Shown here one piece after another: positions 3,019-14,071 of a stretch of DNA of 14,071 nucleotides. Numbering within the stretch: the first letter of the stretch is position 1; every line of letters begins with the position of its first letter. Where the stretch lies: the NCBI GenBank assembly GCA_001303885.1, contig LJUE01000149.1, positions 1-14,071 on the forward strand. The letters run 5' to 3'. A model generated the notes under the pieces. The model worked only from the letters and a program-made list of their open reading frames with translations, searched no databases and was not told the origin of the DNA. The position numbers and the translations under genes were made by a program. The stretch comes from Planctomycetes bacterium SM23_32 (GTDB taxonomy: Bacteria; Planctomycetota; Brocadiia; SM23-32).

Positions 3019-4533
3019 CTAGCGCTTCCGGCGTAAGCCGGACAGCAGGGACTTCAGGCCGGACGTGGGTCTCTCGGCGCTTTCCGCAACGCCCGGCCTC
3101 CCCTCTGCGCCTGTTCGCGGCACGTGCACGGGCGTGCGGTCCAGCTCGCGCTCGATCCGGAACCGCTTCTGCAGCACCTCCACGGTCTCGAGGACCACCT
3201 TGTGGACCGCGTCGCTCAGGGCGCTCACGTCGGCATAGTCATACTCCGTCATCGGCGTTGCGATCGCCTCGTAGTCGAGCACCTGGACTCGGGAGGCCAG
3301 CGCCCGCAGCCATGATCCCGTCGCCCTGGCGAGCTTCTTCACGGGCCAGATCGTTTTGACGGGGCGCCGGTCCCAGAAGCTGGTGTTCAGGTAAGCGTCC
3401 CAGGAGACGTAGAGGTCCGCTCCGTATCCCCACACGCCGACGAGCACGACGGCGCGGCGGCTGCTGACCGTGAGCCACGTGCGCTTCTCTTCCAGCGTGT
3501 AGCCGCCCCACTGCGTCAGCTCCTTCTCGGCCACGGCTGTGTCGGGCAGGTCGAGGCCCTCCAGGCCGCTCTTGAGCCCCGCCCTGACGCCCTGCTCGTG
3601 CTCTCCGATGCCGGGCACAAGGGTGTGCCAGTAGGACATGGGGCGATAGGACTTGGGCACCTGCGACGGCACCTGCCGCGCAATCGTGTAGGTCCGTCTG
3701 ATCCGGCCCGACAGGGCGAACCACACGACGCCCAGAACGATCCAGAGGGGAAGCAACGCCAGGGCCAGGATGACCACCACACATCCCAGGGGCACGGTCA
3801 GGACGCCCAACCCTTTCTTCATGAACCTGCGCAGCCGCTCACCGAGGTTCCCCTTCTTCTCCTTCGGTTTCTTCAGCGCCACCAGGAACGTCAGCCAGGC
3901 CTCAATGTCCTCCTCGCTGATCGTCTTGAGGCCCAGCTGCGGGGTGACGGGACGAGCGTTCGACTCGTACTGGACGTCGTAGGTGTGCTCGTCCTCGTCA
4001 ATGGTCACTCGTATGGACCTCTCGTGGAGCAGTTCGGTCCCGAGGGCCTCGAAGAACCTCATGCTCATCCAGTAGTCGTAAGGCTCGCCCAGCTCCATCC
4101 TGAATCGCAAGCCCAGCTCGTCGCGGCGCTCGAGCACCCGCCGATACAGGTCCATCTTCAGGTCTTCGCAGACGTCCTTGTTGGACCTCTCGCGGGCGCG
4201 CATGTCGGCGTCGCCTGCGCCGTGGGTGCGTATCAGCCTCTCGATCGGCTCTTCGGCAGGCGGCCGTTCCACGCCGAGCGGCGGGTGCTGTTCTTCGGAG
4301 GGCCTCTCCGGCGCTTCCACCTCCCAGACACTCTTTCGCCGCTGAGGCGAGAAACGTGGGCTGCGGGCCGCCACCGGCGCAGCGGGCTCGTCTTGCCCAC
4401 CTGCGCCCGTGTCACGTTCGCCGACGATGTGGATCGGCTCTCCGCAATTGGGGCAGGGCACTGTCTTGCCCAGCAGGCTGTCGGAGCCCTTGAGCCGTCT
4501 GCCGCAGTTCTTGCACGTCGTCCTGACGGTCAT
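3019..4533 (-). CDS. Zinc-ribbon / two-transmembrane protein of unknown function (N-terminal CxxC...CPNCG ribbon, Pro/Glu-rich linker, cytoplasmic domain, hydrophobic hairpin, C-terminal domain)
   Basis: ORF 3019..4599 in the track. Preferred start is the ATG at 4533, which has a perfect GGAGGAGG 5 nt upstream and gives MTVRTTCKNCGRRLKGSDSLLGKTVPCPNCGEPIHIV. Hydrophobic segment GLGVLTVPLGCVVVILALALLPLWIVLGVVWFAL in the middle. High GC3 throughout. Confidence 0.75.
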   Translation of the reverse strand: MTVRTTCKNCGRRLKGSDSLLGKTVPCPNCGEPIHIVGERDTGAGGQDEPAAPVAARSPRFSPQRRKSVWEVEAPERPSEEQHPPLGVERPPAEEPIERLIRTHGAGDADMRARERSNKDVCEDLKMDLYRRVLERRDELGLRFRMELGEPYDYWMSMRFFEALGTELLHERSIRVTIDEDEHTYDVQYESNARPVTPQLGLKTISEEDIEAWLTFLVALKKPKEKKGNLGERLRRFMKKGLGVLTVPLGCVVVILALALLPLWIVLGVVWFALSGRIRRTYTIARQVPSQVPKSYRPMSYWHTLVPGIGEHEQGVRAGLKSGLEGLDLPDTAVAEKELTQWGGYTLEEKRTWLTVSSRRAVVLVGVWGYGADLYVSWDAYLNTSFWDRRPVKTIWPVKKLARATGSWLRALASRVQVLDYEAIATPMTEYDYADVSALSDAVHKVVLETVEVLQKRFRIERELDRTPVHVPRTGAEGRPGVAESAERPTSGLKSLLSGLRRKR

Positions 4534-4659
4534 CGTCACCTCCTCCCAGTGGGCCCGGGACGGCGCTCGCCGCATGAACGGCCGCTTCCGTGCGCGCACG
4601 TCAGTCTATGGCCGGCCTCGACGTCGCGGCATCGTCCCAGCTGCCACACTGCCCACCTC

Positions 4660-6282
4660 TCAGTCCGACAGCCGGCCGCCGCAGTGCTCGCAGAAGCGGC
4701 TGCCCGGCTCGACGCTGCCGTTGCAGTTGGGGCAGCGCAGAGCGCGCGCCCGTCCGCCTGCCCCGGCCGCGGCGTCGGCCTGGGCCCGCATGGCGTCACG
4801 GGCCATCCGCTCTATCCGGTCGAGCATGTCCTCGTAGATCTGCTGCACCTTCTCATTGCCGGCGGCCTGGGCCCTGTAGCGTTCGACGACGGCCCTCGCC
4901 GCCTCGGGCGACTCGGCCGCGGCGATGGCCAGGATCTGCTCTTCGCTGAGATTGCCCATGGCCTCGAGCCGCTCGAGTTCGCGGCGCGCTTCGGCGTCCC
5001 TGGCCTGCTCGCTGATGGCCTGCTCGGCGCGCGTCTTCTCCAGGTCGAGCTCCTGTTTGCCAGCCCGCGCCTCGAGGGCGAAGTCCATCTTGCGCTTCGT
5101 CTCGCCCATGCCGGCCTGGAAGATGGCTTCACGCTGCTTGAGCTCTTCCTCCAGGATCTCGCCGCGGCCTTCGGCCTTCGTCCTGGCGACTTCGATCCCG
5201 TGCTCGGCCTCGAGCTTCTCCAACAGGTGCCGGCGCGTCACCTCCGCGTCCTCGCGGGTCTCCTCGTAGGTGCGCTTCAGCTCCTCCATCTCGCCCTCGC
5301 GGATCACGTCCTTCATGCCCATCTCGTGCTCCCGCTGGCGGATGAACTCCTCGAGGTCCTTCGCCGAGGCGAACTTGTCCATCTGGTCCCTGGTGAGGGT
5401 CGAGCGAATGCGCCGGTAGAGGGCGGCGCGGCGTTCGTCTTCGGCGGCCAGCTCTTCCTTCACGAACGTCTTGCCGCGCGCCTGGCGCACCTGCTCGTAG
5501 GCGTCGCCGTAGAAGTCGAGGAACCTGAGCCGCACCAGCTCCAAGCCGTTCTCGGCGAGCATGTCTCCTATGCCTGCCCGCAGACCCTCCTCCATCTGCT
5601 GCCGCAGCTCCAGATTGCCCGCCAGGTCCTTCACAGACGCCCCTTTGATGCGAGCCTGGACCAGGTTGGCCCCCTCGGCGCCGAGGAAGTCGGCAAGCTC
5701 CGACTCGGTCAGCCTCTGGCGGCCGTGCATCAGGTTGGTGTAGAGGGCCTCGGGCTTGCCCAGGCGCACAACGGCCTGGGCGGCGGCGTTCACCGCCACG
5801 TCCTCCTCGGTTCGCAGGCCCTGGTAGCCGAGCTGCAGCGTCACGTCCCCGGCGTCCATCAGGATCGCCGTGGCCGGCGCGGCGGCGTCCACCTTGCCGA
5901 GCTTGCGGTTCATGTCGTAGGTGCCGGGCTCCGCCGTGCCGGCCAGCGAGCCGCCCTGGAAGATGAGGGCCCGGGTGCCGGGCTCCACGACAAGGCCGCG
6001 CGAGAGCAGGCCGCGCAAGTCCTGGGCTTCGATGCGCCGGGCGAACTCGCCCTCGGCGCGACGCCACCGGTTCATCTCGTCAACGGCCACCTCCCCTTCC
6101 GGGCCGGGGCGGATGGGTGCGCCACACTTGCCGCAGAACTTGGCCCCGCCCTTCAGCGTGGCTCCGCAGCTCGGGCAGACGGCCCTGGCCCGGGGGGCCT
6201 GCTCGCCGCAGTGGGGGCAGAAGGAGGCCCCTCGTCGCACTTTTCCTCCGCAGGACGGGCACTTGTCGCTGAAGAAACCCAT
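4660..6282 (-). CDS. Double zinc-ribbon + SPFH/Band-7 (flotillin-like) domain protein with a long Glu/Arg/Ala coiled coil and a C-terminal zinc ribbon
   Basis: ATG at 6282 with AAGGAGAG about 6 nt upstream. N-terminus CPSCGGKVRRGASFCPHCGEQ...CPSCGATLKGGAKFCGKCGAPI. Middle ...GTRALIFQGG...LYTNLMHGRQRLTESELADFLGAEGANLVQARIKGASVKDLAGNLELRQQMEEGLRAGIGDMLAENGLELVRLRFLDF resembles the C-terminal half of SPFH/prohibitin-homology domains. This is followed by a flotillin-like EA-rich heptad region. C-terminus CPNCNGSVEPGSRFCEHCGGRL. Confidence 0.85.
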   Translation of the reverse strand: MGFFSDKCPSCGGKVRRGASFCPHCGEQAPRARAVCPSCGATLKGGAKFCGKCGAPIRPGPEGEVAVDEMNRWRRAEGEFARRIEAQDLRGLLSRGLVVEPGTRALIFQGGSLAGTAEPGTYDMNRKLGKVDAAAPATAILMDAGDVTLQLGYQGLRTEEDVAVNAAAQAVVRLGKPEALYTNLMHGRQRLTESELADFLGAEGANLVQARIKGASVKDLAGNLELRQQMEEGLRAGIGDMLAENGLELVRLRFLDFYGDAYEQVRQARGKTFVKEELAAEDERRAALYRRIRSTLTRDQMDKFASAKDLEEFIRQREHEMGMKDVIREGEMEELKRTYEETREDAEVTRRHLLEKLEAEHGIEVARTKAEGRGEILEEELKQREAIFQAGMGETKRKMDFALEARAGKQELDLEKTRAEQAISEQARDAEARRELERLEAMGNLSEEQILAIAAAESPEAARAVVERYRAQAAGNEKVQQIYEDMLDRIERMARDAMRAQADAAAGAGGRARALRCPNCNGSVEPGSRFCEHCGGRLSD

Positions 6283-6305
6283 CGCTCTCTCCTTTCGCCT
6301 CGGCC

Positions 6306-6332
6306 GACGCCCCCGCCTCCCGCGCGGGCGTC
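6306..6332 (-). other. GC-rich imperfect hairpin immediately after the membrane-protein stop, in the 48-nt spacer before the SPFH gene. No U-tract, so not a classic intrinsic terminator
   Basis: Minus-strand RNA reads GACGCCCGCGCGGGAGGCGGGGGCGUC. The arms GACGCCC / GGGCGUC plus the inner CGC/GCG can pair. Confidence 0.2.
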
Positions 6333-7173
6333 AGGCAGACCGCAGTCGCTCCTGCTTCGAGAGCATCAGCCAGTCGTAGGCGAGCGCCGCCATCGTGCCG
6401 ACCACCAGCAGTGCGGCAGCCCACCACGTGTCCACTCGGAACCCCAGCATGGCATAGGCGGCGAGGCCGGCCACCAGGGCCAGCCCCAGCAGCATGGCCA
6501 GGTTTGCGGCATTGGACTCGGCCGCCAGGCCCCGGCCCGTCAGGGGGATCAGCACCAGCGGCAGAAGCACAACCAGGGCGAGCCAGCTTGCCAGCCTTGC
6601 GGGCCACGGGTATGCGCGTACGCCGGACTGCGGCCGGCCTGACTCCGCCGCGTCGCCGGCCCGGCCCGTCACACGGACGGGCGGCGCCGTTTCGCGCAGG
6701 GCGATGAGCACGCCTTCCAGGACGGCCTCCTCGGTCTCTTCCGTAGCCGCCAGCCGCGCCACTCGCCCCACCAGGGCATAGTCGGCGTCCAGAGTCCCGA
6801 GGTCCGCCCCTGCGATCGCATCGGGCGAAAGCGCCTCCTGTTCGAGCCCGAGTTCGTCGCGGAGGTTCTCCACGAGGTCGGCCGGCTGGACGGCGTAGCG
6901 GCCGGCCCTGTCAACGGCGCGTCGCACGGCGTCCGTCACGAAACCCGTCGAGTCCCCCTCGAACCGCGCCACAGCGACGGTAGGCCGCCCGCTCGCCGGG
7001 GCGGGCAGGGAGCGCGCCACCTCGGCAGCCGCCGCTTCCGTCAGCTCGCGGCGCCGGGCGTCGAGCGGGAACGGCTTCGGGCGCACGACCATCCATCCCT
7101 GCCAGGCCGCCACGGCCACCAGCAGCGGCACCGCAATGCGCGAGTTCAGTATCTTACCGATGAGCCGAAACAT
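6331..7173 (-). CDS. Polytopic membrane protein, unknown function (N-terminal TM helix, about 150-aa soluble region, three C-terminal TM helices)
   Basis: ATG at 7173 (MFRLIGKILNS) with GGGAGG about 10 nt upstream. Hydrophobic stretches IAVPLLVAVAAW, LASWLALVVLLPLVLIPL, LAMLLGLALVAGLAAYAMLGF, WWAAALLVVGTMAALAY. The start overlaps the 3' end of the upstream AAA gene by 20 nt. Confidence 0.7.
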   Translation of the reverse strand: MFRLIGKILNSRIAVPLLVAVAAWQGWMVVRPKPFPLDARRRELTEAAAAEVARSLPAPASGRPTVAVARFEGDSTGFVTDAVRRAVDRAGRYAVQPADLVENLRDELGLEQEALSPDAIAGADLGTLDADYALVGRVARLAATEETEEAVLEGVLIALRETAPPVRVTGRAGDAAESGRPQSGVRAYPWPARLASWLALVVLLPLVLIPLTGRGLAAESNAANLAMLLGLALVAGLAAYAMLGFRVDTWWAAALLVVGTMAALAYDWLMLSKQERLRSA

Positions 7174-8149
7174 GGCTTGTGCGCCTCCCGCCGTCCTGCG
7201 CCCAGCGCAGGTAGGCTTCCTCGTCTTCAGGCGAGACCGAGGGCTTCATCGAGGCCACGATGCCGCCTATGTCGTCCATGCCGATGTCCCGGGCGGTGCC
7301 GGTACGGATGCTCTCCACGAACGCGCGCGCCCCGGCCCGCTCGCACAGGTCGGCGATGTCCGCGCCGCTGTAACCGGCCAGCTCCTCGGTCAGCGTGTCC
7401 AGATCCACGTCGTCCGCCAGCGGGCGAGCCGCCAGGTAGAGCTCCAGCATCCGCCGGCGGGCTTCGGCGTCGGGCAGCCCCACGTAGACCTTGGCATCGA
7501 ACCGGCCCGGCCTGAGCGCCGCCGAGTCCACCGCCCACGGTTCGTTAGTGGCACCCAGAAACAGGAGCGTCCCCTCCCGGCCCCGGAAGCCCTGCAGCTC
7601 GGCCAGCACCTGCGGCACCACGCGCTGCATGACCGAGGAGCTCGAGCGGCGCCGTGCCGGTATGAGCGCCTCTACCTCGTCTATGAACACCACGGCGCGT
7701 CCGCAGGCGCGGGCCTCCTCGAAGAGCCGCTCGACGTTCTGCTCGGCTTCACCGACCCACTTGGACATCAGCTCGGAGGGCTTGGCCGTGAAGAAGGCGG
7801 CGTCCACCTCCCCGGCGATAGCCCGTGCCAGCAGCGTCTTGCCCGTGCCCGGCGGCCCGAACAGCAGCAGCCCGCCGCCCTGTCGCACGCCGTAGCGCGC
7901 GGCCGCCTCCGGGTACTGCAGGGGATATATGAGCCGCAGGCGGGCCTCCTCTTTGGCCTCCTGGAGGCCGGCCACGTCGTCGAAGCAGACGTCCGCCGGC
8001 TCGCGCACCAGGAACGCCGGCTCGCCCTCCTCGACGGCCACGCGGGCCGCCCGCAGGTAGTGCAGTCTTGCCCCCGCATAGTCGTGCGCCTGGCGGGCGC
8101 TCGACGCCTTGTTCAGGTACTCCAGGGATTTCTCCAGCAGGAGCTTCAC
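7154..8149 (-). CDS. MIT-domain AAA+ ATPase of the meiotic clade (Vps4/katanin/spastin-like), copy 1
   Basis: GTG start at 8149 overlaps the TGA of the upstream Snf7-like gene (GTGA). N-terminus LEKSLEYLNKASSARQAHDYAGARLHYLRAARVAVEE is MIT-like (compare Vps4 [34 protein letters not shown]). Walker A LLLFGPPGTGKTLLARA. ELMSKWVGEAEQNVERLFEEAR matches [14 protein letters not shown] of Vps4. Walker B VVFIDEVEAL. ALRPGRFD second region of homology. C-terminus MKPSVSPEDEEAYLRWAQ matches the spastin/katanin/Vps4 C-terminal RPSVSPxDLxxYxxW motif. Confidence 0.85.
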   Translation of the reverse strand: MKLLLEKSLEYLNKASSARQAHDYAGARLHYLRAARVAVEEGEPAFLVREPADVCFDDVAGLQEAKEEARLRLIYPLQYPEAAARYGVRQGGGLLLFGPPGTGKTLLARAIAGEVDAAFFTAKPSELMSKWVGEAEQNVERLFEEARACGRAVVFIDEVEALIPARRRSSSSVMQRVVPQVLAELQGFRGREGTLLFLGATNEPWAVDSAALRPGRFDAKVYVGLPDAEARRRMLELYLAARPLADDVDLDTLTEELAGYSGADIADLCERAGARAFVESIRTGTARDIGMDDIGGIVASMKPSVSPEDEEAYLRWAQDGGRRTSHVSAHR

Positions 8150-8739
8150 TTCATCTCCTTGCGCATCTGCTCTTCGACTTCCGTCAGCCCCCGCGCGATC
8201 CTCTCGTCGTAGGCCTGCGCCTCGTCGGCCTCGGCCTCGCCCTCCATGGCCTGTGCGATTTCGGTCAGCTCCTCTTCGTCCGCCTCCTCGGCGCCGAACA
8301 CCGAATCGGCGCTGGCGTCCATGGCCAGCGCCAGCATGTCGTCCACGGCCTGCGCTCTGGTCAGGGCCTCTTCCATGCGGGCCTGCATGGACGCTATCTG
8401 GCCGGGCTCGGCGCCGCGCATCATGGACTTGGTGGTGGCGGCGATGGCGTCTATGAACTCGGCGACGGTGGCCGACTCCTCCTTGCGCACGCCGAGCGTC
8501 TCAAGCTGGAGCAGGTAGCGCTCCCATCGTCCCAGGAGGTCCCGCGTGCGTATGTAGGCCCCGGCCAGGTGTCGGAACTGCTCCCGGTCGCCCAGGCGCA
8601 GGGCTTCCTTGCCGAGCCGCCAGTACTTCTTCTGCACCTTCTGCGCGTTCTTGATGAAGCGCTTTATCCTGGCCTTGCCCTGCCTGAGCTTGATCTCCCG
8701 CTCAAGCTCGCGCTGCCTCTTGGACTTGAAGAGTGCCAT
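8146..8739 (-). CDS. Snf7-family ESCRT-III-like protein (CHMP3/Vps24-like), copy 1
   Basis: 197 aa. ATG at 8739 with GAGGGAG about 7 nt upstream. Basic N-terminal half MALFKSKRQRELEREIKLRQGKARIKRFIKNAQKVQKKYWRLGKEAL. Helix ATTKSMMRGAEPGQIASMQARMEEALTRAQAVDDMLALAMD parallels CHMP3 QKSTEVMKAMQSLVKIPEIQATMRELSKEMMKAGIIEEMLEDTFE. Strongly acidic C-terminal region ends in an amphipathic MIM-like tail DERIARGLTEVEEQMRKEMK. Charge asymmetry and length are typical of Snf7/CHMP. Confidence 0.8.
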   Translation of the reverse strand: MALFKSKRQRELEREIKLRQGKARIKRFIKNAQKVQKKYWRLGKEALRLGDREQFRHLAGAYIRTRDLLGRWERYLLQLETLGVRKEESATVAEFIDAIAATTKSMMRGAEPGQIASMQARMEEALTRAQAVDDMLALAMDASADSVFGAEEADEEELTEIAQAMEGEAEADEAQAYDERIARGLTEVEEQMRKEMK

Positions 8740-8760
8740 CTGCTACTCCCTCGGAGACCC

Positions 8761-9939
8761 TCACCAGTTCTCGAACTTGCGCACGGTCTGCGGCGACGTG
8801 TCCGGCCGTGTGACGGCAAGCGCCGGCTCGAAGTGGCGCCACTCCAGCGGCCGGGTCTTCAGCTCGTAGCGTGCGAGTGCCGTCCTCCGGCCGCCAGCGA
8901 GCTGGGCCAGGTCGGGGTTGGCCTCGGCCACCATGGCCTCCACCGCACGGGCCGCCACGTGGGCCACCTGCCGGCCGCTCAGCCCCTCGCTCGCCTCCAC
9001 GAGCCTGTCCATCGGGAAGGACAACTCGTGGCCCCTGCGCAGCAGGTGCACCTCGAAGATGGCGCGCCGGGCCGCTGCGTCGGGCAGGGGCACGTAGACG
9101 CGCCGCCCGAACCGGCTCAGGGCCGCCTCGTCCATGAACCACGGCGCGTTCGTCGCTCCGATGGTGAAGACCTGTTCCTTGCCGCCTGCGGTCGCCACGC
9201 CGCTCATCTCGGCAAGCAGCGTCGAGAGCACGCGGCGCTCCGGCCCGCTGGTGGCCGCCTCGCGCGTGGGGAAGAGCGCCTCCAGCTCGTCGAAGAAGAC
9301 AACCGAGGGGCTCAGTTCGCGCGCCGTCGCATAGAGGGTCGAGACCAGGCGCGGCGACTCACCGAACCACTTCGAAAGCAGGCTGGAGACCCGCACGTCG
9401 AAGAACGTGGCGTCCAGGCCGTTTGAGATCGCGGCCGCCAGCAGCGACTTGCCCGTGCCGGGCGGCCCGTAGAGCAGGATGTTCGGGGCGGCCTCGATCC
9501 GCACCCCGGTCGGCTTGCGGGCCACCGCCAGGCCAAAGGCGAGGCGCACCTGACGCTTCGCCTCGCCCAGCCCGCCGATCTCGTCCCACGTCACGTCGGC
9601 CTTGGCGATGAGCCCCGTCACCCGCTCCCGCAGCTCGTCTGGCTGCGCGCCCTCTTCGTGGTCCTTGGCTTGCGCCCCTCCAACCAGGCGGGCAGGCACG
9701 GGGGCCTCCTCGCCCCTGTCGAGCCGTTCGGCCCACTCCCTCAGCTCGCGGGAGCGCTTCAACCTCCGCGCTCTCTCCGCGTCGCCCGTCGCGTAATGGG
9801 CATACTGCGCCGCCAGTTTCGCCGCCTCCCGGTAGACCTGAGCCGATCGGGCGAGGTCACCGGAGGCCCGCAGTTCCGCTGCGCGGCGCTCCGACGTGCA
9901 GAGCGCCTCATGAATGCTGCGGCTGAGGTCAACCCTCAT
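8761..9939 (-). CDS. MIT-domain AAA+ ATPase, Vps4-like, copy 2
   Basis: ATG at 9939. Three-helix MIT-like N-terminus ([64 protein letters not shown]). [55 protein letters not shown] is nearly collinear with Vps4 [55 protein letters not shown]. Walker B [38 protein letters not shown] versus Vps4 [28 protein letters not shown]. C-terminus [24 protein letters not shown] resembles the Vps4_C helix (FLKAIKSTRPTVNEDDLLKQEQFTRDFG). Confidence 0.88.
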   Translation of the reverse strand: [392 protein letters not shown]

Positions 9940-9947
9940 CGGACACC

Positions 9948-10601
9948 TCAGAGATCGGGCTCGTCGGGCTCCGCGGCTGCGGATGTCTCTCCACGCTCTC
10001 TCAGTATGTGGTCCACCCGGGCTCTGGCGGCCTCCACGTCCTCGCTCCGCCCCGCCTCCTCGGCTGCCCTGGCCTGCTCCATCGCCTCTACTATGCCGAG
10101 CACGTCGGCGTCTTCCTCCACCTCGGCCGTGTCCATTGCGCCTTCGAGTGCGCCGAGCAGCGTGGTGAACTTCTCCATCTCGAACTGGCCTTCCACCGTG
10201 GCCCTCTCGACGTACTCGGACAGCTCCGACAGCGGCATCTTGGAGACGACGGAGCCGACCTTCAGCTCGTCCAGGAGCGCCATGTTCTCCTTGATCTGAA
10301 GCAGGCCGTCCACGATCCGCAGGTGCTTGTTGAACAGGGCCAGTTGCTGCGCCTTGGCCCGGGCGCGCGAGTCGAGCTGCTTGATCTTGCGGGCCACCAT
10401 CACGCGCCGGCGCTGGCTGGCCTCATTGGTCCCCTCAGCGAACAGCTTCTGCTTCTGAGTGTCCAGGTCGTCCACCTCCCGGCCGAGCCGCCTCTCCATC
10501 TGCTCAATGCGGATCTGCTCGCGCTTCAGTTCGTCAACCGTGATGTTCTCAATCCGGTTCCCACGGTCAATGAGGCTCTTGATCCTGTCCAACAGAGACA
10601 T
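9948..10601 (-). CDS. Snf7-family ESCRT-III-like protein (Snf7/CHMP4-like), copy 2
   Basis: Preferred start is the ATG at 10601 with GAGGAGGAG 5-6 nt upstream. The track's 10616 start is a GTG that overlaps the kinase stop as GTGA. MSLLDRIKSLIDRGNRIE...QIRIEQMERRLGREVDDLDTQKQKLFAEGTNEASQRRRVMVARKIKQLDSRARAKAQQLALFNKHLRIVDGLLQIKENMALLDELK parallels CHMP4 KKIEQELTAAKKHG...ALKRKKRYEKQLAQIDGTLSTIEFQREALENANTNTEVLKNM. Acidic C-terminal half with a terminal helix EDVEAARARVDHILRER. Confidence 0.8.
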   Translation of the reverse strand: MSLLDRIKSLIDRGNRIENITVDELKREQIRIEQMERRLGREVDDLDTQKQKLFAEGTNEASQRRRVMVARKIKQLDSRARAKAQQLALFNKHLRIVDGLLQIKENMALLDELKVGSVVSKMPLSELSEYVERATVEGQFEMEKFTTLLGALEGAMDTAEVEEDADVLGIVEAMEQARAAEEAGRSEDVEAARARVDHILRERGETSAAAEPDEPDL

Positions 10602-10612
10602 TGCTCTCCTCC

Positions 10613-12937
10613 TCACTCAGGTGGCCTGTGCGTCGGCCTGTAGAGAACAACCCCGACCCCCGCCATCTGTTCCAGAACGAAGCCGCCCTCTCCGCTTAAC
10701 GAGTCCAGCACGCGAGCGGCGTTGACACGGCTCAGACCCAGCTCCTCCGCCAGGTGGTCCAGCGAAATCGAACCATGCAACTCCACATAGTCCCGCGCGA
10801 ATCGCTGCGCCTCCTGCAGCGCCGCCCGGTCGAGTGTCGGGGCAAACGCCTCCCGCACACAGGGAGCGAGCTTCTCGTCGGTCTCGTCGTAGATGAACCC
10901 CCCGCGCTCGTGGTCGAAGAGCACTACGCTTACCAGGCGGTCGCGGAAGCCCTGCCTGCCCCCCGCGACGGCGAGATCACGAGCCGCAGCGTCCCAGCCC
11001 GTCGGGCTGTAGGCGATGACCAGATGCCATTCCGCACCAGCGGCCGCGGCCCGGGCCGCCTCATTGAGGAGGGCCTCCAGTTCGGTGCGCGAGGAAGGGG
11101 CGTCGTCGTGGCCGTCGCGGGCGAAACGCTCCAGGTGCGTCAGGCTGCGGGCTTCGACGACCAGGCTCGGTCGGCGCCTGCCCAGCCCGCCCCTGCGAAC
11201 CTGGTACACCACGCCCGCCCCGACCGGGAACTGGTCCGTCGCCTCGGTTCTTCGCCGGCTCGGGCCGAGCGCGTCGCGCAGCTCGGCGGCCCTGTCGGTC
11301 CGTTGTGCCAGCCCGGCCCAGGACCTCACGCTCAGCCTCTCGCCGCTGAGGGGGTCCACCACCTCGCCCAACCCCTCCAGGGCGCTCTCCGCCAGGCGCA
11401 GGAACGTCTGTTCCCCCACGCGCGCTTCTCGAGCCGAAACGACGGCCCCGCCCTCGGCCGTCGCTGCAGCGGCCGCTTCAGCACCGGCTGTCTTCGACTC
11501 CTCGGCGGTGCGCTCAAGCCGTTCGGCAAGCCGGGCGCCTTCACCTGCCTTTGCCTGCTCGGCGTGCTCGGCACAATGCCGGACGCCGCGCGCCTGCCAG
11601 CACGTGCTGCAGATGGGCTCCCCACACACCTCACAGGCACCGGCCGCGCTCAACTGCGAGACGATGACCCCCGAACAGGCGGAGCAGCGGCCCGAGAACG
11701 TCGTCCCGCTCGAGCCGGAGCCCCCGCCCTCCGCGCCCGGCCCACGGCCCTGGGAAGCAACCGCTTCTCTGTGCACGGTCGTGCGGCTCGCCGTGACGAA
11801 CCGCTCGAGGTCCCCTGCAAACTCGGTCGCCGTCTGGTAACGCCGCCGGGGGCTCCGCTCCATAGCTCGGCGCACGACGCCGGCCAGCTCGAAGGGAACC
11901 GAGGGCCGTAGCGCCCGCACGTCGGGCCCCTCACCACGTGCTATCTTGCGCATCACCTCGGTGCTGCTCTCGCCGGGGAAGGGCAGTGCGCCCGTGAGCA
12001 TCTCGAACAAGACTACGCCCACCGAGAACAGGTCGCTGCGCGCGTCAAGGTCCCGGGCGCCGCGGGCCTGTTCGGGCGACATATACCACGGCGTGCCCGT
12101 CGTGGTCCCCTCCCGGGTGAGCCGCACGGCGTCCGCCACGCCCCGCGCCAGGCCGAAGTCGGTGATCTTCACACGGCCGCCCTCGGTGCCGATGATCACG
12201 TTCCCCGGCTTGACATCGCGGTGGACGATGCCGGCCCGGTGGGCATGCTCGAGCCCGAGCAGCATCTCGCGGGCGATGCCGGCCGCCCTGCCGGCGTCCA
12301 TCGGCGCCTCGCGGTCAATCACGGCGCCGAGCGATTCCCCCTCGATGAACTCCATGGCGATGTAGGGCACCGATCCCGCCTCGCCCACGGCGTGGATGGT
12401 CACGATGTTGGGGTGGTTGAGGCGCGCCGCGGCACGCGCCTCTCGCAGGAACCGCTGCCGGGCCTGCTCGTCGTAGAGCAGTCGGGGGCTCATCACCTTG
12501 AGCGCCACGTGGCGGTCCAGGGCCTCCTCGTAGGCACGCAGCACGATGCCCATCCCGCCCTGGCCCACCACGGAGACCACGTCAAAGCTGCCCAGGCGGG
12601 CCAGGTAGCCCTCGTGGCGGGGGGACTCCAGCACCAGCCCGTTGGGCAGCGTCACCCGGCCGGCCTGTGCCACCACGGTGACCCCTGCCCTCTCGACCAT
12701 GCCGCTCCAGTCCATGTCCTGCTCCTGGGCGTCAGGTGCCACGGTGGTCGCCTCGCGCAGGCGGTCAACCTGGTCCGACAGGGGAAGCGCACGGTCGAAG
12801 CGGCGCCGGCACTCCTCGCACTCATCCAGGTGCCTTGCCACCCGGTCTGCCTCCTGCGGCGATGCCTCGTCGCAGGCCGCCCGCCGGATCAGCTCCTCGG
12901 GCACGCAGGCGTCGTCCTGGGGGCTGCCCTCGCTCAT
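10613..12937 (-). CDS. Anti-sigma-factor N-terminal zinc finger (zf-HC2) fused to an active Hanks-type Ser/Thr protein kinase, a Cys-cluster (zinc-ribbon-like) region, a domain of unknown function and a C-terminal winged-helix-like segment
   Basis: ATG at 12937 overlaps the sigma-factor TGA (ATGA). N-terminus HLDECEECRRRF gives H-x3-C-x2-C, as in zf-HC2 anti-sigma factors. Kinase motifs: GQGGMGIV, VALKVM, HRDVKPGNVII, ITDFGLAR, GTPWYMSPEQ. Cys cluster CSACSG...CEVCGEPICSTCWQARGVRHCAEH. C-terminal ISLDHLAEELGLSRVNAARVLDSLSGEGGFVLEQ looks like an HTH/winged helix. Confidence 0.9.
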   Translation of the reverse strand: MSEGSPQDDACVPEELIRRAACDEASPQEADRVARHLDECEECRRRFDRALPLSDQVDRLREATTVAPDAQEQDMDWSGMVERAGVTVVAQAGRVTLPNGLVLESPRHEGYLARLGSFDVVSVVGQGGMGIVLRAYEEALDRHVALKVMSPRLLYDEQARQRFLREARAAARLNHPNIVTIHAVGEAGSVPYIAMEFIEGESLGAVIDREAPMDAGRAAGIAREMLLGLEHAHRAGIVHRDVKPGNVIIGTEGGRVKITDFGLARGVADAVRLTREGTTTGTPWYMSPEQARGARDLDARSDLFSVGVVLFEMLTGALPFPGESSTEVMRKIARGEGPDVRALRPSVPFELAGVVRRAMERSPRRRYQTATEFAGDLERFVTASRTTVHREAVASQGRGPGAEGGGSGSSGTTFSGRCSACSGVIVSQLSAAGACEVCGEPICSTCWQARGVRHCAEHAEQAKAGEGARLAERLERTAEESKTAGAEAAAAATAEGGAVVSAREARVGEQTFLRLAESALEGLGEVVDPLSGERLSVRSWAGLAQRTDRAAELRDALGPSRRRTEATDQFPVGAGVVYQVRRGGLGRRRPSLVVEARSLTHLERFARDGHDDAPSSRTELEALLNEAARAAAAGAEWHLVIAYSPTGWDAAARDLAVAGGRQGFRDRLVSVVLFDHERGGFIYDETDEKLAPCVREAFAPTLDRAALQEAQRFARDYVELHGSISLDHLAEELGLSRVNAARVLDSLSGEGGFVLEQMAGVGVVLYRPTHRPPE

Positions 12938-13536
12938 GTAGTCACCATTTCCACGGCTTCGCTGAGGCGCTTGAGCACGCGCGACTTGCTGACATAGACC
13001 TGGCCGATGCTCATGCCCAGCTCCCGCGCTACCTCAGCCGGCGGCCGATCCTCTAAGACGGCCATCTCGAAGGCCCGCCAGGTGGTGCCCTTCACCCTCG
13101 GACGAACCGTGGCGATGGCTGCCTGAAGGCATCGGACCTGCCACTCGCGCTCCCACTTCTCCTCCATACCCGCCCCGGCGTCGGGCAGCCCTTCGACCAT
13201 CTCCACGTTGCTGGTGCCGCCCCGGGCGGGCGGCCGGCGGCGCTGCCGCGCGAAGAAGCGCCGGGCCCGGTTCGTAGTCACCGTGTAGAGCCATCCCCGG
13301 AACGTGCCCTTCGCCGGGTCATAGTCGAACCTGGGCATCTGCTTCAGCACGATCTGCATCACCTCCTGGGCCACGTCCGGGGCGTCGTCGCCCGAAACGC
13401 CGATCCTCCTGAGGTAGCGGAGGACGAGGGGACCATAGAGCTCGGCGAACTCCCGCCAGCTCTCCGCGTCACGGGGGTCGCGCAGCCGCAGCAGCAGACT
13501 CGGGCGCGTTCCCAGCTCATGTTGCCCTGCTCCCAT
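12934..13536 (-). CDS. ECF-type (group 4) sigma-70 family RNA polymerase sigma factor
   Basis: MGAGQHELGTRPSLLLRLRDPRDAESWREFAELYGPLVLRYLRR...DAPDVAQEVMQIVLKQMPRFD...GTFRGWLYTVTTNRARRF shows regions 2.1-2.4. TWRAFEMAVLEDRPPAEVARELGMSIGQVYVSKSRVLKRLSE shows the region 4 HTH. The ATG at 13536 is preferred over the track's 13608 start because the conserved RPSLL(L/E)RL block lies close to the true N-terminus in this family. Confidence 0.85.
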   Translation of the reverse strand: MGAGQHELGTRPSLLLRLRDPRDAESWREFAELYGPLVLRYLRRIGVSGDDAPDVAQEVMQIVLKQMPRFDYDPAKGTFRGWLYTVTTNRARRFFARQRRRPPARGGTSNVEMVEGLPDAGAGMEEKWEREWQVRCLQAAIATVRPRVKGTTWRAFEMAVLEDRPPAEVARELGMSIGQVYVSKSRVLKRLSEAVEMVTT

Positions 13537-13649
13537 CCGGGACCGTCCATCAAGCAGTACCCGGGAGTCGCCCGCACCTTGCACAAGATCCGTGCCGGCT
13601 ACGCCCAATCAGGTGAGCCGAATGCGAGGACGGAGTCCAAGCGGACGCC

Positions 13650-13678
13650 ATTTTACCGGCCTTACCTGTGTTTTCAAG
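13650..13678 (-). promoter_or_regulatory. Candidate sigma-70-type promoter for the sigma-factor operon (minus strand: TTGAAA, 17-nt spacer, TAAAAT)
   Basis: Reverse complement of 13650-13678 reads cTTGAAAacacaggtaaggccggTAAAATg. This is a conspicuously AT-rich hexamer pair in roughly 70% GC DNA, about 110 nt upstream of the sigma ATG in the 284-nt divergent intergenic region. Confidence 0.3.
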
Positions 13679-13820
13679 CCCGTCTTCCCTCTGGCCGTCC
13701 CAGGCGCTCCGCCGGCCCGCCCAGCGACGCGGCAGCCCCGTGTGCAAGAGTGGCGGCCTTCCGGTATATTCACCCACGGGGGAGGTCTGCCCTCCGCCGC
13801 CCATCGGCAGGGGATGGCCC

Positions 13821-14071
13821 ATGGCGAAGTTCGGCCCTTATGAGATCCTCACGAAGCTCGGCGAGGGCGGCATGGGCCGCGTCTACAAGGCCCGCCAGCC
13901 CGAGCTCGGCCGCACCGTCGCCCTGAAGGTCCTCAACCCCCACGTCGTCTCGCCCGAGACCTACGAACGGTTCCGCCGCGAAATCCGCCTCCTGTCCCGC
14001 CTCCGCCACCCACACGTGGTGCGCCTCTTCACCAGCGGCACCCACCAGGGCCGCGTCTACTTCACCATGGA
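13821..14071 (+). CDS. Ser/Thr protein kinase, N-terminal fragment (gene continues beyond the window)
   Basis: ATG at 13821 with AGGGGA upstream. Translation MAKFGPYEILTKLGEGGMGRVYKARQPELGRTVALKVLNP...RFRREIRLLSRLRHPHVVRLF gives the Gly-rich loop, the VAIK-type Lys and the alphaC Glu of Hanks kinases. Confidence 0.8.
   Translation, partial: MAKFGPYEILTKLGEGGMGRVYKARQPELGRTVALKVLNPHVVSPETYERFRREIRLLSRLRHPHVVRLFTSGTHQGRVYFTM

Follow-up and report, generated by a model that had tools for sequence, protein, structure and literature searches.

The window, the whole 14,071-nucleotide stretch of DNA analysed, carries a compact run of minus-strand genes from an ECF sigma gene down to a gene ending at position 3019, with successive gaps of -4, 11, 8, 21, -4, -20, 48 and 60 nt. 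A sequence-only reading of the same DNA had described all downstream genes as co-directional with gaps of at most 126 nt. This holds from the sigma gene to 3019 (all minus strand, gaps -20 to 60 nt); below 3019 there are two overlapping ORFs, 1213-2982 and 1557-2138. The first gene (12934-13536, minus strand) encodes a 200-aa sigma factor, KPK61772.1, annotated as 'hypothetical protein AMK73_07805'. The second (10613-12937, minus strand) encodes a 774-aa soluble regulator comprising a zinc anti-sigma (ZAS) domain, a Hanks kinase domain, a Zn finger, a helix, a globular domain and a winged helix. It is directly followed by the gene for a 217-aa helical protein (9948-10601, minus strand), orthologues of which are present in all the related loci; profile methods found no tie between this protein and ESCRT-III.

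Further downstream, all on the minus strand, lie the genes for a 392-aa Vps4-like AAA ATPase (AAA ATPase 1, 8761-9939), a 197-aa Snf7/ESCRT-III-like protein (8146-8739), a 331-aa AAA ATPase of the classical clade (AAA ATPase 2, 7154-8149) and a 540-aa protein combining a double zinc ribbon with an SPFH/Band_7 domain (4660-6282), which is conserved in loci L001, L003 and L089. The best NCBIfam match of AAA ATPase 1 was CdvC, at 158.8 bits, far under the 650-bit equivalog cut-off. The 197-aa protein matched Pfam Snf7 with an E value of 1.3e-8 (35.2 bits, gathering score 27.3) and gave weak full-length matches to CHMP3. The orthologue of AAA ATPase 2 in L089 showed a weak Vps4_C match. The sigma/kinase pair thus stands at the head of a dense run of co-directional genes, with Snf7-like, Vps4-like and SPFH genes among them. 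Diverging from it, a second Ser/Thr kinase gene (13821-14071, plus strand; translation MAKFGPYEILTKLGEGGMG...) runs off the window after its N-terminus. Neither a phosphatase gene nor an obvious phospho-acceptor could be assigned at the locus.

Profile searches confirmed the first gene product as an ECF sigma factor, with matches to Sigma70_r2 (E 8.6e-16), Sigma70_r4_2 (E 5.9e-6) and TIGR02937 sigma70-ECF (74 bits, cut-off 42.9). Region 2 covers residues 32-101 and region 4 residues 154-191, and they are joined by a linker containing a conserved GGTS (13210-13221, minus strand). Both Asp residues of the region 2.2 DAED motif are retained, as DAPD in this protein (DDAPD codons at 13375-13389, minus strand) and as DAPD, DAAD or DAQD among its relatives. 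The sigma factor is 31% identical to that of Rhodopirellula sallentina and 42-50% identical to many others.

The stop codon of the sigma gene and the start codon of the kinase gene overlap as ATGA (12934-12937, minus strand), consistent with translational coupling. This overlap had been noted in the sequence-only reading, and overlaps of 4, 8 or 17 nt are kept in all six orthologous loci. The claim that the kinase is cytoplasmic was also upheld: no TM segment was found in the 774 residues, the highest Kyte-Doolittle 19-mer average being 1.63, within the alpha-F helix of the kinase.

Residues 1-64 of the kinase (12746-12937, minus strand) form a CHCC-type ZAS domain. The published definition of such domains is an HxxxCxxC motif with a fourth Cys upstream, encoded by a gene adjoining that of an ECF sigma factor on its downstream side (PMC4960319). 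The kinase N-terminus has this arrangement: HLDECEEC spans residues 36-43, the fourth Cys lies 25 residues upstream and the gene is directly 3' of the sigma gene. The H-x3-C-x2-C finger of the sequence-only reading is confirmed, and its ligands C11 (12905-12907, minus strand) and H36, C40 and C43 (12809-12832, minus strand) were invariant in an alignment of 14 homologues. Pfam zf-HC2 scored 20.0 bits against the whole kinase, under the gathering score of 22.2, and 22.5 bits against the isolated N-terminus; it matched 14 of 14 family members, with a best E value of 8e-6. Six of the ten PDB profile matches to the N-terminus were anti-sigma ZAS domains, the five best included (E 9e-4 to 0.1), namely DdvA (two entries), RsiW, ChrR (two entries) and RslA. 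An AF2 model placed helices at residues 14-21, 27-37 and 41-50 with pLDDT of 84-89, and a fourth anti-sigma helix (54-64) with low confidence.

The kinase domain proper occupies residues 113-396 (11750-12601, minus strand; Pkinase E 2.5e-49). All the catalytic motifs reported in the earlier reading are there and are invariant in the family: GQGGMG at 125, VALK at 144-147, HRD at 239-241, N246, DFG at 260-262 and SPE at 287-289. What had been described as a Cys cluster is an eight-ligand, probably binuclear Zn finger, C-x2-C-x13-C-x2-C-x4-C-x2-C-x8-C-x2-H (residues 415-458; 11564-11695, minus strand), with a weak, sub-threshold likeness to B-box, FYVE and C1 domains. None of its ligands, C418, C421, C435, C438, C443, C446, C455 and H458, varies within the kinase family. 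A globular alpha/beta domain (residues 502-700; 10838-11434, minus strand) found no fold match in PDB searches, and the C-terminus is a winged helix, as proposed earlier (residues 704-766; 10640-10828, minus strand), which scored equally against DNA-binding regulators and ESCRT-II.

Many proteins of 400-470 aa were found in which an HTH_17 DNA-binding domain is joined to the same globular and winged-helix module and the same Zn finger, again with invariant ligands. In the one such locus read, an orthologue of the 217-aa gene (44% identical) comes next after the HTH_17-module gene. The occurrence of the module in both ZAS-kinase and HTH_17 fusions indicates that it has repeatedly been coupled to transcription-control heads.

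In hhalign the module aligned with a 658-aa protein of Methanomethylovorans over 241 columns (probability 99.4%, E 8.8e-22). The archaeal gene precedes an AAA+Vps4_C gene by two or three small genes, and its product agrees with what has been described for arCOG09748, a hallmark of ESCRT loci in archaea (PMC10936438). AAA ATPase 1 is 31.5% identical over its full length to the archaeal AAA+Vps4_C protein (E 8e-72), and the 217-aa protein is 34% identical over 104 aa to archaeal Vps4-locus proteins. The 'main clade' archaeal ESCRT loci (Makarova et al. 2024) contain Vps4, ESCRT-III, arCOG09748, arCOG08177 and STK/STP. With the Methanomethylovorans locus the window shares a homologue of the kinase tail and matches to AAA ATPase 1 and the 217-aa protein; Ser/Thr kinases, SPFH and zinc-ribbon proteins, FHA proteins and FGE-sulfatase proteins recur in both the archaeal and the bacterial loci. 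In the bacterial host, however, the system has gained a ZAS domain and an ECF sigma factor, both bacterial inventions, no arCOG08177-like gene was identified, and the adaptor is fused to a kinase, whereas in archaea it is a separate protein with an N-terminal helical or coiled-coil part. The homology of the tail to an archaeal ESCRT-locus component points to the ESCRT machinery as the input that is sensed, in place of a general stress signal. The membrane-stress signal of the earlier proposal is revised accordingly.

Comparison of seven orthologous loci with differing flanks showed that the order sigma, ZAS-kinase, ~215-aa protein and the sigma/kinase overlap are kept in all seven at 38-59% protein identity. 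The core of sigma, ZAS-kinase, ~215-aa protein and AAA genes is found in six of the seven divergent loci; the AAA and Snf7-like genes are absent from L004 and the second AAA gene from L003. Upstream of the sigma gene in the six other loci, and in the window as the seventh, is a bipartite motif, TG[TC]AAGA-N13/14-GG[ACG][TA]A. The copy in the window, GTGCAAGG-N14-GGGTAC (13555-13584, minus strand), has one mismatch, begins 48 nt before the sigma ATG and is a candidate promoter for the sigma operon. A second copy, GTGCAAGA-N13-GGTATATTC (13742-13771, plus strand), faces the divergent kinase gene, so the 284-nt divergent intergenic region holds two copies, one directed at each gene. At up to one mismatch the motif occurs four times in the window, where shuffles predict 0.29. 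Exact TGTAAGA occurs six times in 137.5 kb (both strands), and five of these six lie 30-114 nt upstream of a sigma gene. The motif recurs before the SPFH/DZR gene in two loci (L003:14950; L004:15806, with one mismatch). This conservation fits a role in control of the operon.

Kinase-linked ECF sigma factors are known in Planctomycetes, in groups ECF59, ECF61, ECF62 and ECF217 (Casas-Pastor et al. 2021), and such groups have been described as being without anti-sigma factors. These groups and the window share a sigma factor with a TRPSLLxRxRD N-terminus and DAxD, followed by a Hanks kinase, an arrangement seen in Aquisphaera, Kuenenia, R. sallentina and several MAGs. A ZAS-kinase (C-x22-25-HLxxCxxC) was directly downstream in 12 of 12 planctomycete sigma-clade loci inspected, and every planctomycete kinase read had the full ZAS signature. 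The ZAS-kinase fusion is therefore the rule beside this sigma clade in Planctomycetes and is not peculiar to the ESCRT-like locus. What sets the window family apart is that its kinases carry the ESCRT-locus module, with no TM segment, in place of the TM segment and WD40 or other sensors of the planctomycete groups. The earlier interpretation was thus right in pairing an ECF sigma factor with a cytoplasmic anti-sigma/kinase fusion and in placing the pair at the head of the cluster; the picture changes in that the fusion is general beside this sigma clade and that the ESCRT machinery is the likelier input.

On balance, and with confidence a little above even, we favour a switch of the sigma/anti-sigma kind that forms part of an ESCRT-type membrane-remodelling operon. 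The overlapping genes would supply coupled amounts of the 200-aa sigma factor and the 774-aa protein, and at rest the CHCC ZAS domain of the latter would clamp the former. The active-looking kinase, eight-ligand Zn finger, long helix and globular plus winged-helix module would together receive the signal, the module perhaps docking on the ESCRT-III-like/Vps4-like machinery that the operon encodes or on its membrane-bound polymer. Docked in this way, the kinase molecules would cluster and become active, and the sigma factor could then be freed by phosphorylation, whether of the anti-sigma domain, of the linker or of the sigma factor itself. Free sigma factor may transcribe from the conserved TGYAAGA-N13/14-GGnTA, raising expression of the whole operon and the divergent kinase gene. 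Against this model weigh the borderline zf-HC2 score of the full-length kinase, the low confidence of the fourth anti-sigma helix, the non-ECF look of the motif, the mismatch in its copy before the sigma gene, the winged helix scoring no better against ESCRT-II than against DNA-binding regulators, the 217-aa protein giving no profile link to ESCRT-III, the failure to assign a phosphatase or phospho-acceptor, and the lack of AAA genes in L004. ESCRT membrane-remodelling machinery has been regarded as absent from bacteria, and a bacterial ESCRT system is apparently unreported. With a sigma factor and a ZAS-kinase-adaptor at the head of the operon, the bacterial ESCRT machinery seems to have a transcriptional switch of its own.

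It is possible, though unlikely, that the ZAS-like domain merely recruits the sigma factor to the kinase and that phosphorylation activates the sigma factor without sequestration, for example at the conserved G-G/D-S/T of the sigma2-sigma4 linker. The ECF43 sigma factors EcfP and EcfK are activated by direct phosphorylation (PMC8999054; PMC13147305), such working has been proposed for the kinase-linked planctomycete groups (PMC7826278), the linker region of M. tuberculosis SigH is likewise phosphorylated, at T106 and T110 (PMC13147305), and Ser/Thr is conserved at the equivalent T108/S109 in most relatives. The SigH modification, however, has no known effect on RshA binding (PMC13147305), and a complete, invariant CHCC signature is hard to account for as a docking site alone. 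The EcfP-PknT and EcfK-PknS pairs resemble the window in joining an ECF sigma factor to a Hanks kinase with no classical membrane anti-sigma factor, but ECF43 sigma factors lack DAED, are hence intrinsically inactive and are activated by phosphorylation of a region 2.2 threonine. Here the kinase has a ZAS domain; and as the sigma factor keeps DAPD, the idea that phosphorylation supplies a missing charge is not obviously applicable.

An RsrA-like thiol switch, in which oxidation of C11 with C40 or C43 would expel zinc and free the sigma factor while the kinase and tail have other targets, such as ESCRT proteins or FHA partners, is considered improbable. The spacing of C11/H36/C40/C43 is almost that of RsrA (C11/H37/C41/C44), CHCC sites can sense disulfide stress where HHCC sites cannot (PMC4960319), the kinase protein has a second invariant Cys-rich zinc site, and extra kinases and FHA proteins in related loci, with kinase and/or FHA genes flanking L003 and L004, suggest a wider phospho-network. 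CHCC is nevertheless shared by every kinase-fused ZAS domain inspected in planctomycetes, even in proteins that are anchored in the membrane and have WD40 or periplasmic domains; being independent of the sensor domain, the Cys residues are a clade trait and not evidence of redox sensing here. The kinase is covalently fused in every inspected member, which argues that it takes part in sigma control, and the DNA comes from a sediment MAG, whose organism may live without oxygen. Least likely of all is that the pair is a passenger, co-transcribed with the ESCRT-like genes while its regulon lies elsewhere, or that a housekeeping-type promoter drives the operon and the pair controls only itself and distant genes. 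The motif is unlike the usual ECF GGAAC/CGTC promoter and, with its TATAAT-like downstream box, might serve the housekeeping or another sigma factor; the contig spans 14 kb, and distant targets may lie beyond it; and a consensus scan gave a sigma-70-like match, TTGAAA-16-TAAAAT (13650-13677, minus strand; 10 of 12 consensus positions). Inspection of the upstream regions of the orthologous loci revealed no matching -35 box, which makes this the less favoured promoter. TGYAAGA is, moreover, unlike TTGACA, the motif recurs before other genes of these loci, order and overlap persist despite divergence and different flanks, and proteins of the kinase-tail type belong to ESCRT loci in their own right.

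The logic of the favoured switch is close to that of PspA-PspF feedback and of PknB-RshA-SigH, with different parts. In Psp a polymer-engaging component also restrains a transcription activator; the comparison drawn in the sequence-only reading is retained as a functional analogy that we infer, the window being without sigma-54, a PspF-type AAA+ activator and PspB/C. In RsrA-SigR and in the PknB-linked RshA-SigH and RseA-SigE of Actinobacteria, as here, a soluble CHCC anti-sigma factor is encoded right after the ECF sigma factor, and in M. tuberculosis phosphorylation of RshA or RseA by PknB releases the sigma factor (PMC8999054; PMC13147305). The window kinase differs from PknB in being joined in cis to its anti-sigma domain and in having a ~360-aa tail, and its sigma partner belongs to a planctomycete clade and not to ECF12. 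Among solved structures, the N-terminal profile matched DdvS-DdvA of Myxococcus xanthus best (PDB 8rlz, 8rot; E 9e-4). The effector/sensor domain and biological context of DdvA differ from those of the window kinase, but in both proteins a ZAS domain is fused to a large non-canonical domain, which in DdvA is CHAT.

Between 13536 and 3019 all convincing genes of the window, whose G+C content is 70%, lie on the minus strand. The ECF sigma factor gene (12934-13536), identified by exact-sequence look-up as KPK61772.1, 'hypothetical protein AMK73_07805' of Planctomycetes bacterium SM23_32, is followed by genes for a 774-aa kinase (10613-12937), a 217-aa helical protein (9948-10601), an AAA ATPase, AAA1 (8761-9939), a 197-aa Snf7-family protein (8146-8739), a second AAA ATPase (7154-8149), a membrane protein (6331-7173), a double-zinc-ribbon/SPFH protein (4660-6282) and a 526-aa membrane protein (3019-4599). 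The successive intergenic gaps are -4, 11, 8, 21, -4, -20, 48 and 60 nt. The sequence-only reading had described the genes downstream of the sigma factor as co-directional and closely packed, and this was borne out over 13536-3019 by the common strand and by gaps of -20 to 60 nt; the ATGA at 12934-12937, in which the sigma stop and the kinase start overlap, is likewise real. At the 3' end two minus-strand ORFs overlap, one of 589 aa (1213-2982) and one of 193 aa with terminal zinc ribbons (1557-2138). The former is rich in Arg, Gly and Ala past about residue 280, which suggests a frameshift or two genes. A terminator-like site inside AAA1 (9317-9301) was dismissed as chance, the scan having given 3 such sites against 4.2 expected.

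The sigma factor proved to be a standard ECF, as first read: its 200 aa carry only the sigma2 and sigma4 domains (Sigma70_r2 at residues 32-101, Sigma70_r4_2 at 154-191) and it scores 74 bits against TIGR02937 (cut-off 42.9). Hundreds of relatives were found at 42-50% identity, and the similarity shown to the kinase-linked planctomycete sigma factors is at clade level only. In ECF43 the sigma factors lack the acidic DAED motif of region 2.2 and threonine phosphorylation supplies the charge (PMC8999054). The sigma factor of the window has D-A-P-D at this position, rather than a Ser/Thr in place of the acidic motif, and its relatives have DAAD, DAQD, DALD, DASD or DAMD, with HVPD in the orthologous locus L001 alone; going by these residues, a mechanism of the ECF43 kind is not an obvious fit. 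With DAPD kept, the sigma factor probably binds core polymerase unmodified, and an inhibitor would therefore be needed.

The kinase had been read as catalytically complete and cytoplasmic. Every Hanks motif was found, and no hydrophobic stretch that could form a TM segment was seen beyond the kinase core. The match to Pkinase has E 2.5e-49, and the invariant residues are G125-G130, K147, E166, H239-R240-D241, N246, D260-F261-G262 and P288-E289, the core of the SPE at 287-289. The full-length relatives returned by a protein search number about 20 (38-49% identity, 98% coverage), and every one comes from a metagenome or a MAG. Fourteen were aligned, and C11, H36, C40, C43, the catalytic residues, the eight ligands of the Cys cluster and many positions among the last 280 residues are invariant. 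Within the C-terminal alignment no stretch was sufficiently conserved to seed a scan for loci. A scan of genome contigs on generic kinase motifs gave only unrelated kinases and no full-length relatives, although it did provide the Kuenenia and Rhodopirellula sallentina loci discussed below.

The zinc-binding anti-sigma (ZAS) domain is defined by HxxxCxxC, by a fourth ligand (Cys or His) lying 23-26 residues N-terminal to it and by the position of its gene downstream of an ECF sigma gene (PMC4960319). All three features are found here. The His-x3-Cys-x2-Cys zinc finger proposed for the N-terminus is present as HLDECEEC at residues 36-43, invariant in all 14 family members, and C11, equally invariant in the alignment, supplies the fourth ligand 25 residues before H36. 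By the published criteria, then, the kinase N-terminus is a ZAS domain, and its ligands are of the CHCC subtype, as in RsrA (C11/H36/C40/C43 compared with RsrA C11/H37/C41/C44). Pfam zf-HC2 is marginal in the full-length kinase (20.0 bits, cut-off 22.2); it passes in the isolated N-terminus (22.5 bits) and matches all 14 N-termini of the family. When an N-terminal profile was compared with the PDB, six of ten matches, the five best included, were anti-sigma ZAS domains (E 9e-4 to 0.1), namely DdvA (two entries), RsiW, ChrR (two entries) and RslA. An AF2 model built on the 14-sequence alignment, compared with the helical ASD fold of a three-helix core and a fourth helix, has helices at 14-21, 27-37 and 41-50 (pLDDT 84-89), a helix of low confidence at 54-64, and a disordered linker joining the ZAS domain to the kinase domain.

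The arrangement extends beyond this family. In all 12 loci inspected a ZAS-kinase lies directly downstream of the ECF sigma gene, with the 4-nt overlap in the window. Among these are the neighbourhoods of more distant sigma relatives, in Aquisphaera giovannonii and two MAGs and, from the genome scan, in Kuenenia and R. sallentina; in each of the five (L085, L086, L087, L006 and L008) the next gene encodes a kinase beginning C-x22-25-H-L-x2-C-x2-C. In these five the kinase domain is followed by a TM segment, and WD40 or other sensor domains are present; the family of the window kinase has none of these. Judged from these sequences, the ZAS-kinase fusion is a clade-wide trait in the loci inspected. 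The kinase-linked ECF groups listed in the literature consulted are ECF43, 59-62, 217, 267 and 283, and those of planctomycetes are described in the ECF literature as being without anti-sigma factors. A limited literature search found no published description of such a fusion, and an earlier one may exist. If the kinase N-termini are true ZAS domains, the model for several ECF groups would shift from 'sigma is phosphorylated' to 'kinase-coupled anti-sigma'.

The other half of the protein, beyond the kinase domain, begins with a zinc finger of the form C-x2-C-x13-C-x2-C-x4-C-x2-C-x8-C-x2-H, invariant in the family (kinase residues 415-458, 11564-11695, minus strand). Its seven Cys and one His, at residues 418-458, are the Cys cluster noted earlier from the sequence. 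Lipid binding is known for the FYVE and C1 folds, and ANCHR regulates ESCRT-III/VPS4. All matches of the finger were sub-threshold: to the B-box in 12 of 14 members, to an ANCHR-like B-box in eight, to FYVE in seven, and to C1. This likeness is too weak for the finger to be called FYVE or B-box. A long helix connects it to the remainder (residues 493-774), for which AF2 gave a confident model (pLDDT 89.5). The winged helix expected at the C-terminus was recovered and is the only part that the PDB matches cover; MarR, ArsR, Z-alpha and eS25 winged helices score equally, and no specifically ESCRT-II assignment is claimed. The approximately 200-residue alpha/beta domain that precedes it had no PDB match in the searches.

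An exhaustive profile search found the module formed by this globular domain and the winged helix in 412 representative proteins. The best 13 full-length matches (456-850 aa) were kinase fusions or truncated copies. A second class comprises many proteins of 400-470 aa that carry, ahead of the module, an HTH_17 DNA-binding domain and this same type of eight-ligand zinc finger (e.g. P0252, P0253, P0257 and P0262, and L093:39-2035), and in a third, of 540-660 aa, a helical N-terminus and a coiled coil come before it. At the one HTH_17-module locus that was read, L093, the next gene is orthologous to the 217-aa gene (44% identity, E 1e-53), with no AAA gene after it. On these gene orders, the module stays associated with a 217-aa-type protein whichever of two transcription-control heads it carries. 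It is chiefly this that suggests a tail sensing the machinery, with transcription of these genes as the output.

The relatives of one class-three member are annotated as Methanomethylovorans, and a profile of the kinase tail aligned with one of these relatives, P0394, at 99.4% probability in hhalign (E 8.8e-22, 241 columns). In both archaeal loci (L091 and L092) the module protein is followed by two or three proteins of about 195 aa and then by an AAA ATPase whose Vps4_C domain exceeds the Pfam cut-off, at 29.5 bits in the P0394 locus (gathering score 21.3). By this alignment the kinase tail has archaeal homologues whose genes accompany those of Vps4 and ESCRT-III; relative to the archaeal class-three proteins, the N-terminal helical/coiled-coil part is replaced by ZAS, kinase, zinc finger and one long helix. 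Makarova et al. described arCOG09748 as a signature of 'main clade' archaeal ESCRT loci, in which Ser/Thr kinases also occur, and as having a central globular domain, for which no fold relatives are known, and a winged helix at the C-terminus (PMC10936438). The P0394-type protein fits arCOG09748 by description, and the kinase tail, with a globular domain without PDB match ahead of its winged helix, fits an arCOG09748-like adaptor.

Other products of the operon also match the archaeal locus. AAA1 aligned over its full length with the archaeal Vps4_C ATPase (31.5% identity, E 8e-72), the 217-aa protein has 34% identity with the archaeal proteins of about 198 aa over its first 104 residues, and the 197-aa protein is above the Pfam Snf7 threshold. 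Neither ATPase of the window matched Vps4_C and both were far below the CdvC equivalog cut-off. Ranking of the two against PDB sequences did not decide between Vps4 and Cdc48 affinity because two-domain Cdc48/p97 chains dominate. For the 217-aa protein no ESCRT-III match was obtained, either among PDB sequences, with Snf7 (E 0.35) or by hhalign against the Snf7-like family. Apart from the regulator, the stretch at 3019-10601 (minus strand), with its Snf7-family and zinc-ribbon SPFH proteins, resembles an archaeal-type ESCRT locus in a bacterium.

The cluster recurs in six further loci, where the sigma gene overlaps the kinase gene by 8 or 17 nt and a gene for a protein of about 215 aa follows. 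In most of them AAA, Snf7-like and AAA genes come next, together with a varying set of genes for SPFH/zinc-ribbon, FGE-sulfatase and additional kinase/FHA proteins; the AAA and Snf7-like genes are missing from L004, and the second AAA gene from L003. The flanks vary and include bacterial ribosomal-protein, Tex and GGDEF genes, which argues for bacterial contigs rather than mis-binned archaeal DNA. Proteins with an FGE-sulfatase domain, in many cases also with a zinc ribbon, lie near the bacterial clusters (L001:18828-20213, L003:326-2182, L004:18511-20007 and L089:10738-12225) and surround the archaeal Vps4 loci (L091 and L092), one of which also has a kinase-domain protein.

The favoured model is that the ZAS domain would sequester the sigma factor and that the kinase/adaptor half would trigger its release. 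There is precedent in the phosphorylation by PknB of the ZAS anti-sigmas RshA and RseA, which frees SigH and SigE (PMC8999054; PMC13147305). Direct phosphorylation may instead activate the sigma factor, for which a conserved Ser/Thr (T108/S109) is available in the sigma2-sigma4 linker. Most sigma relatives have G-G/D-S/T there, and the GGTS of the window (residues 106-109, 13210-13221) is a possible phospho-acceptor; in M. tuberculosis SigH, PknB phosphorylates T106 and T110 in the same linker region. An RsrA-like thiol switch may also operate, the kinase ZAS being of the CHCC type. Each of these two could be compatible with sequestration and release. A further alternative is that the regulon of the sigma factor may be located elsewhere, the regulator being a passenger at this locus.

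Neither the logic of sigma and ZAS nor the linkage of ECFs to kinases is novel. What is new is a soluble ZAS-kinase with an ESCRT-locus adaptor tail, heading a Vps4/Snf7 operon in a bacterium. It is possible, if a little short of probable, that some Planctomycetota have the whole of an archaeal-type ESCRT module, with Vps4-like ATPases, ESCRT-III-like subunits, an SPFH protein and an arCOG09748/ESCRT-II-like adaptor that is fused to a Hanks kinase and a ZAS domain, and that a dedicated ECF sigma factor has its activity set directly by how the machine is assembled. If true, this would be the first bacterial ESCRT system and the first anywhere with a built-in feedback switch from machine to transcription. 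Recent reviews hold that Vps4-type systems are absent from bacteria, to which the operon and its six relatives are an apparent counter-example. Fusion of the adaptor to a transcription switch would also make sigma activity a genetic read-out of what such prokaryotic ESCRT machines sense.

Upstream of the sigma gene in all six other loci there is a motif TG[TC]AAGA, 13-14 nt, GG[AC][TA]A, starting 30-114 nt before the annotated start. The exact TGTAAGA occurs 6 times in 137.5 kb (both strands), five times at the sigma-upstream position and once just 5' of the SPFH gene of L003. In the window the motif is found at 13584-13555 (minus strand) as GTGCAAGG-N14-GGGTAC, 48 nt before the sigma ATG, and at up to one mismatch there are 4 matches compared with 0.29 in mononucleotide shuffles. 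It differs from the textbook ECF promoter GGAAC/CGTC and has a TATAAT-like downstream box; we infer that it is read by the ECF sigma factor of the window. GGTAAAA-N13-GGACT at 13657-13634 was dropped as the sigma promoter since 13584-13555 matches better, and a match at 7844, within Walker A coding sequence, was treated as a false positive. An alternative sigma-70-like match lies at 13677-13650, and no matching -35 box was seen upstream of the sigma gene at the other loci.

A second, divergent Ser/Thr kinase gene (13821-14071, plus strand) runs off the window. The motif lies 50 nt before its ATG (13821) as GTGCAAGA-N13-GGTATATTC (13742-13771, plus strand), and the perfect upstream box suggests that the sigma operon and the divergent kinase form a small regulon. 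Another copy, GTGCAAGG-N14-GGCTAC with one mismatch at 224 (minus strand), faces the left end of the window, so that any target lies outside it. No internal copy 5' of the DZR/SPFH gene was found in the window. In two orthologous loci additional TGTAAGA-type copies occur inside the cluster just 5' of the DZR/SPFH-type gene (L003:14950 and, with one mismatch, L004:15806), and these are possible internal promoters.
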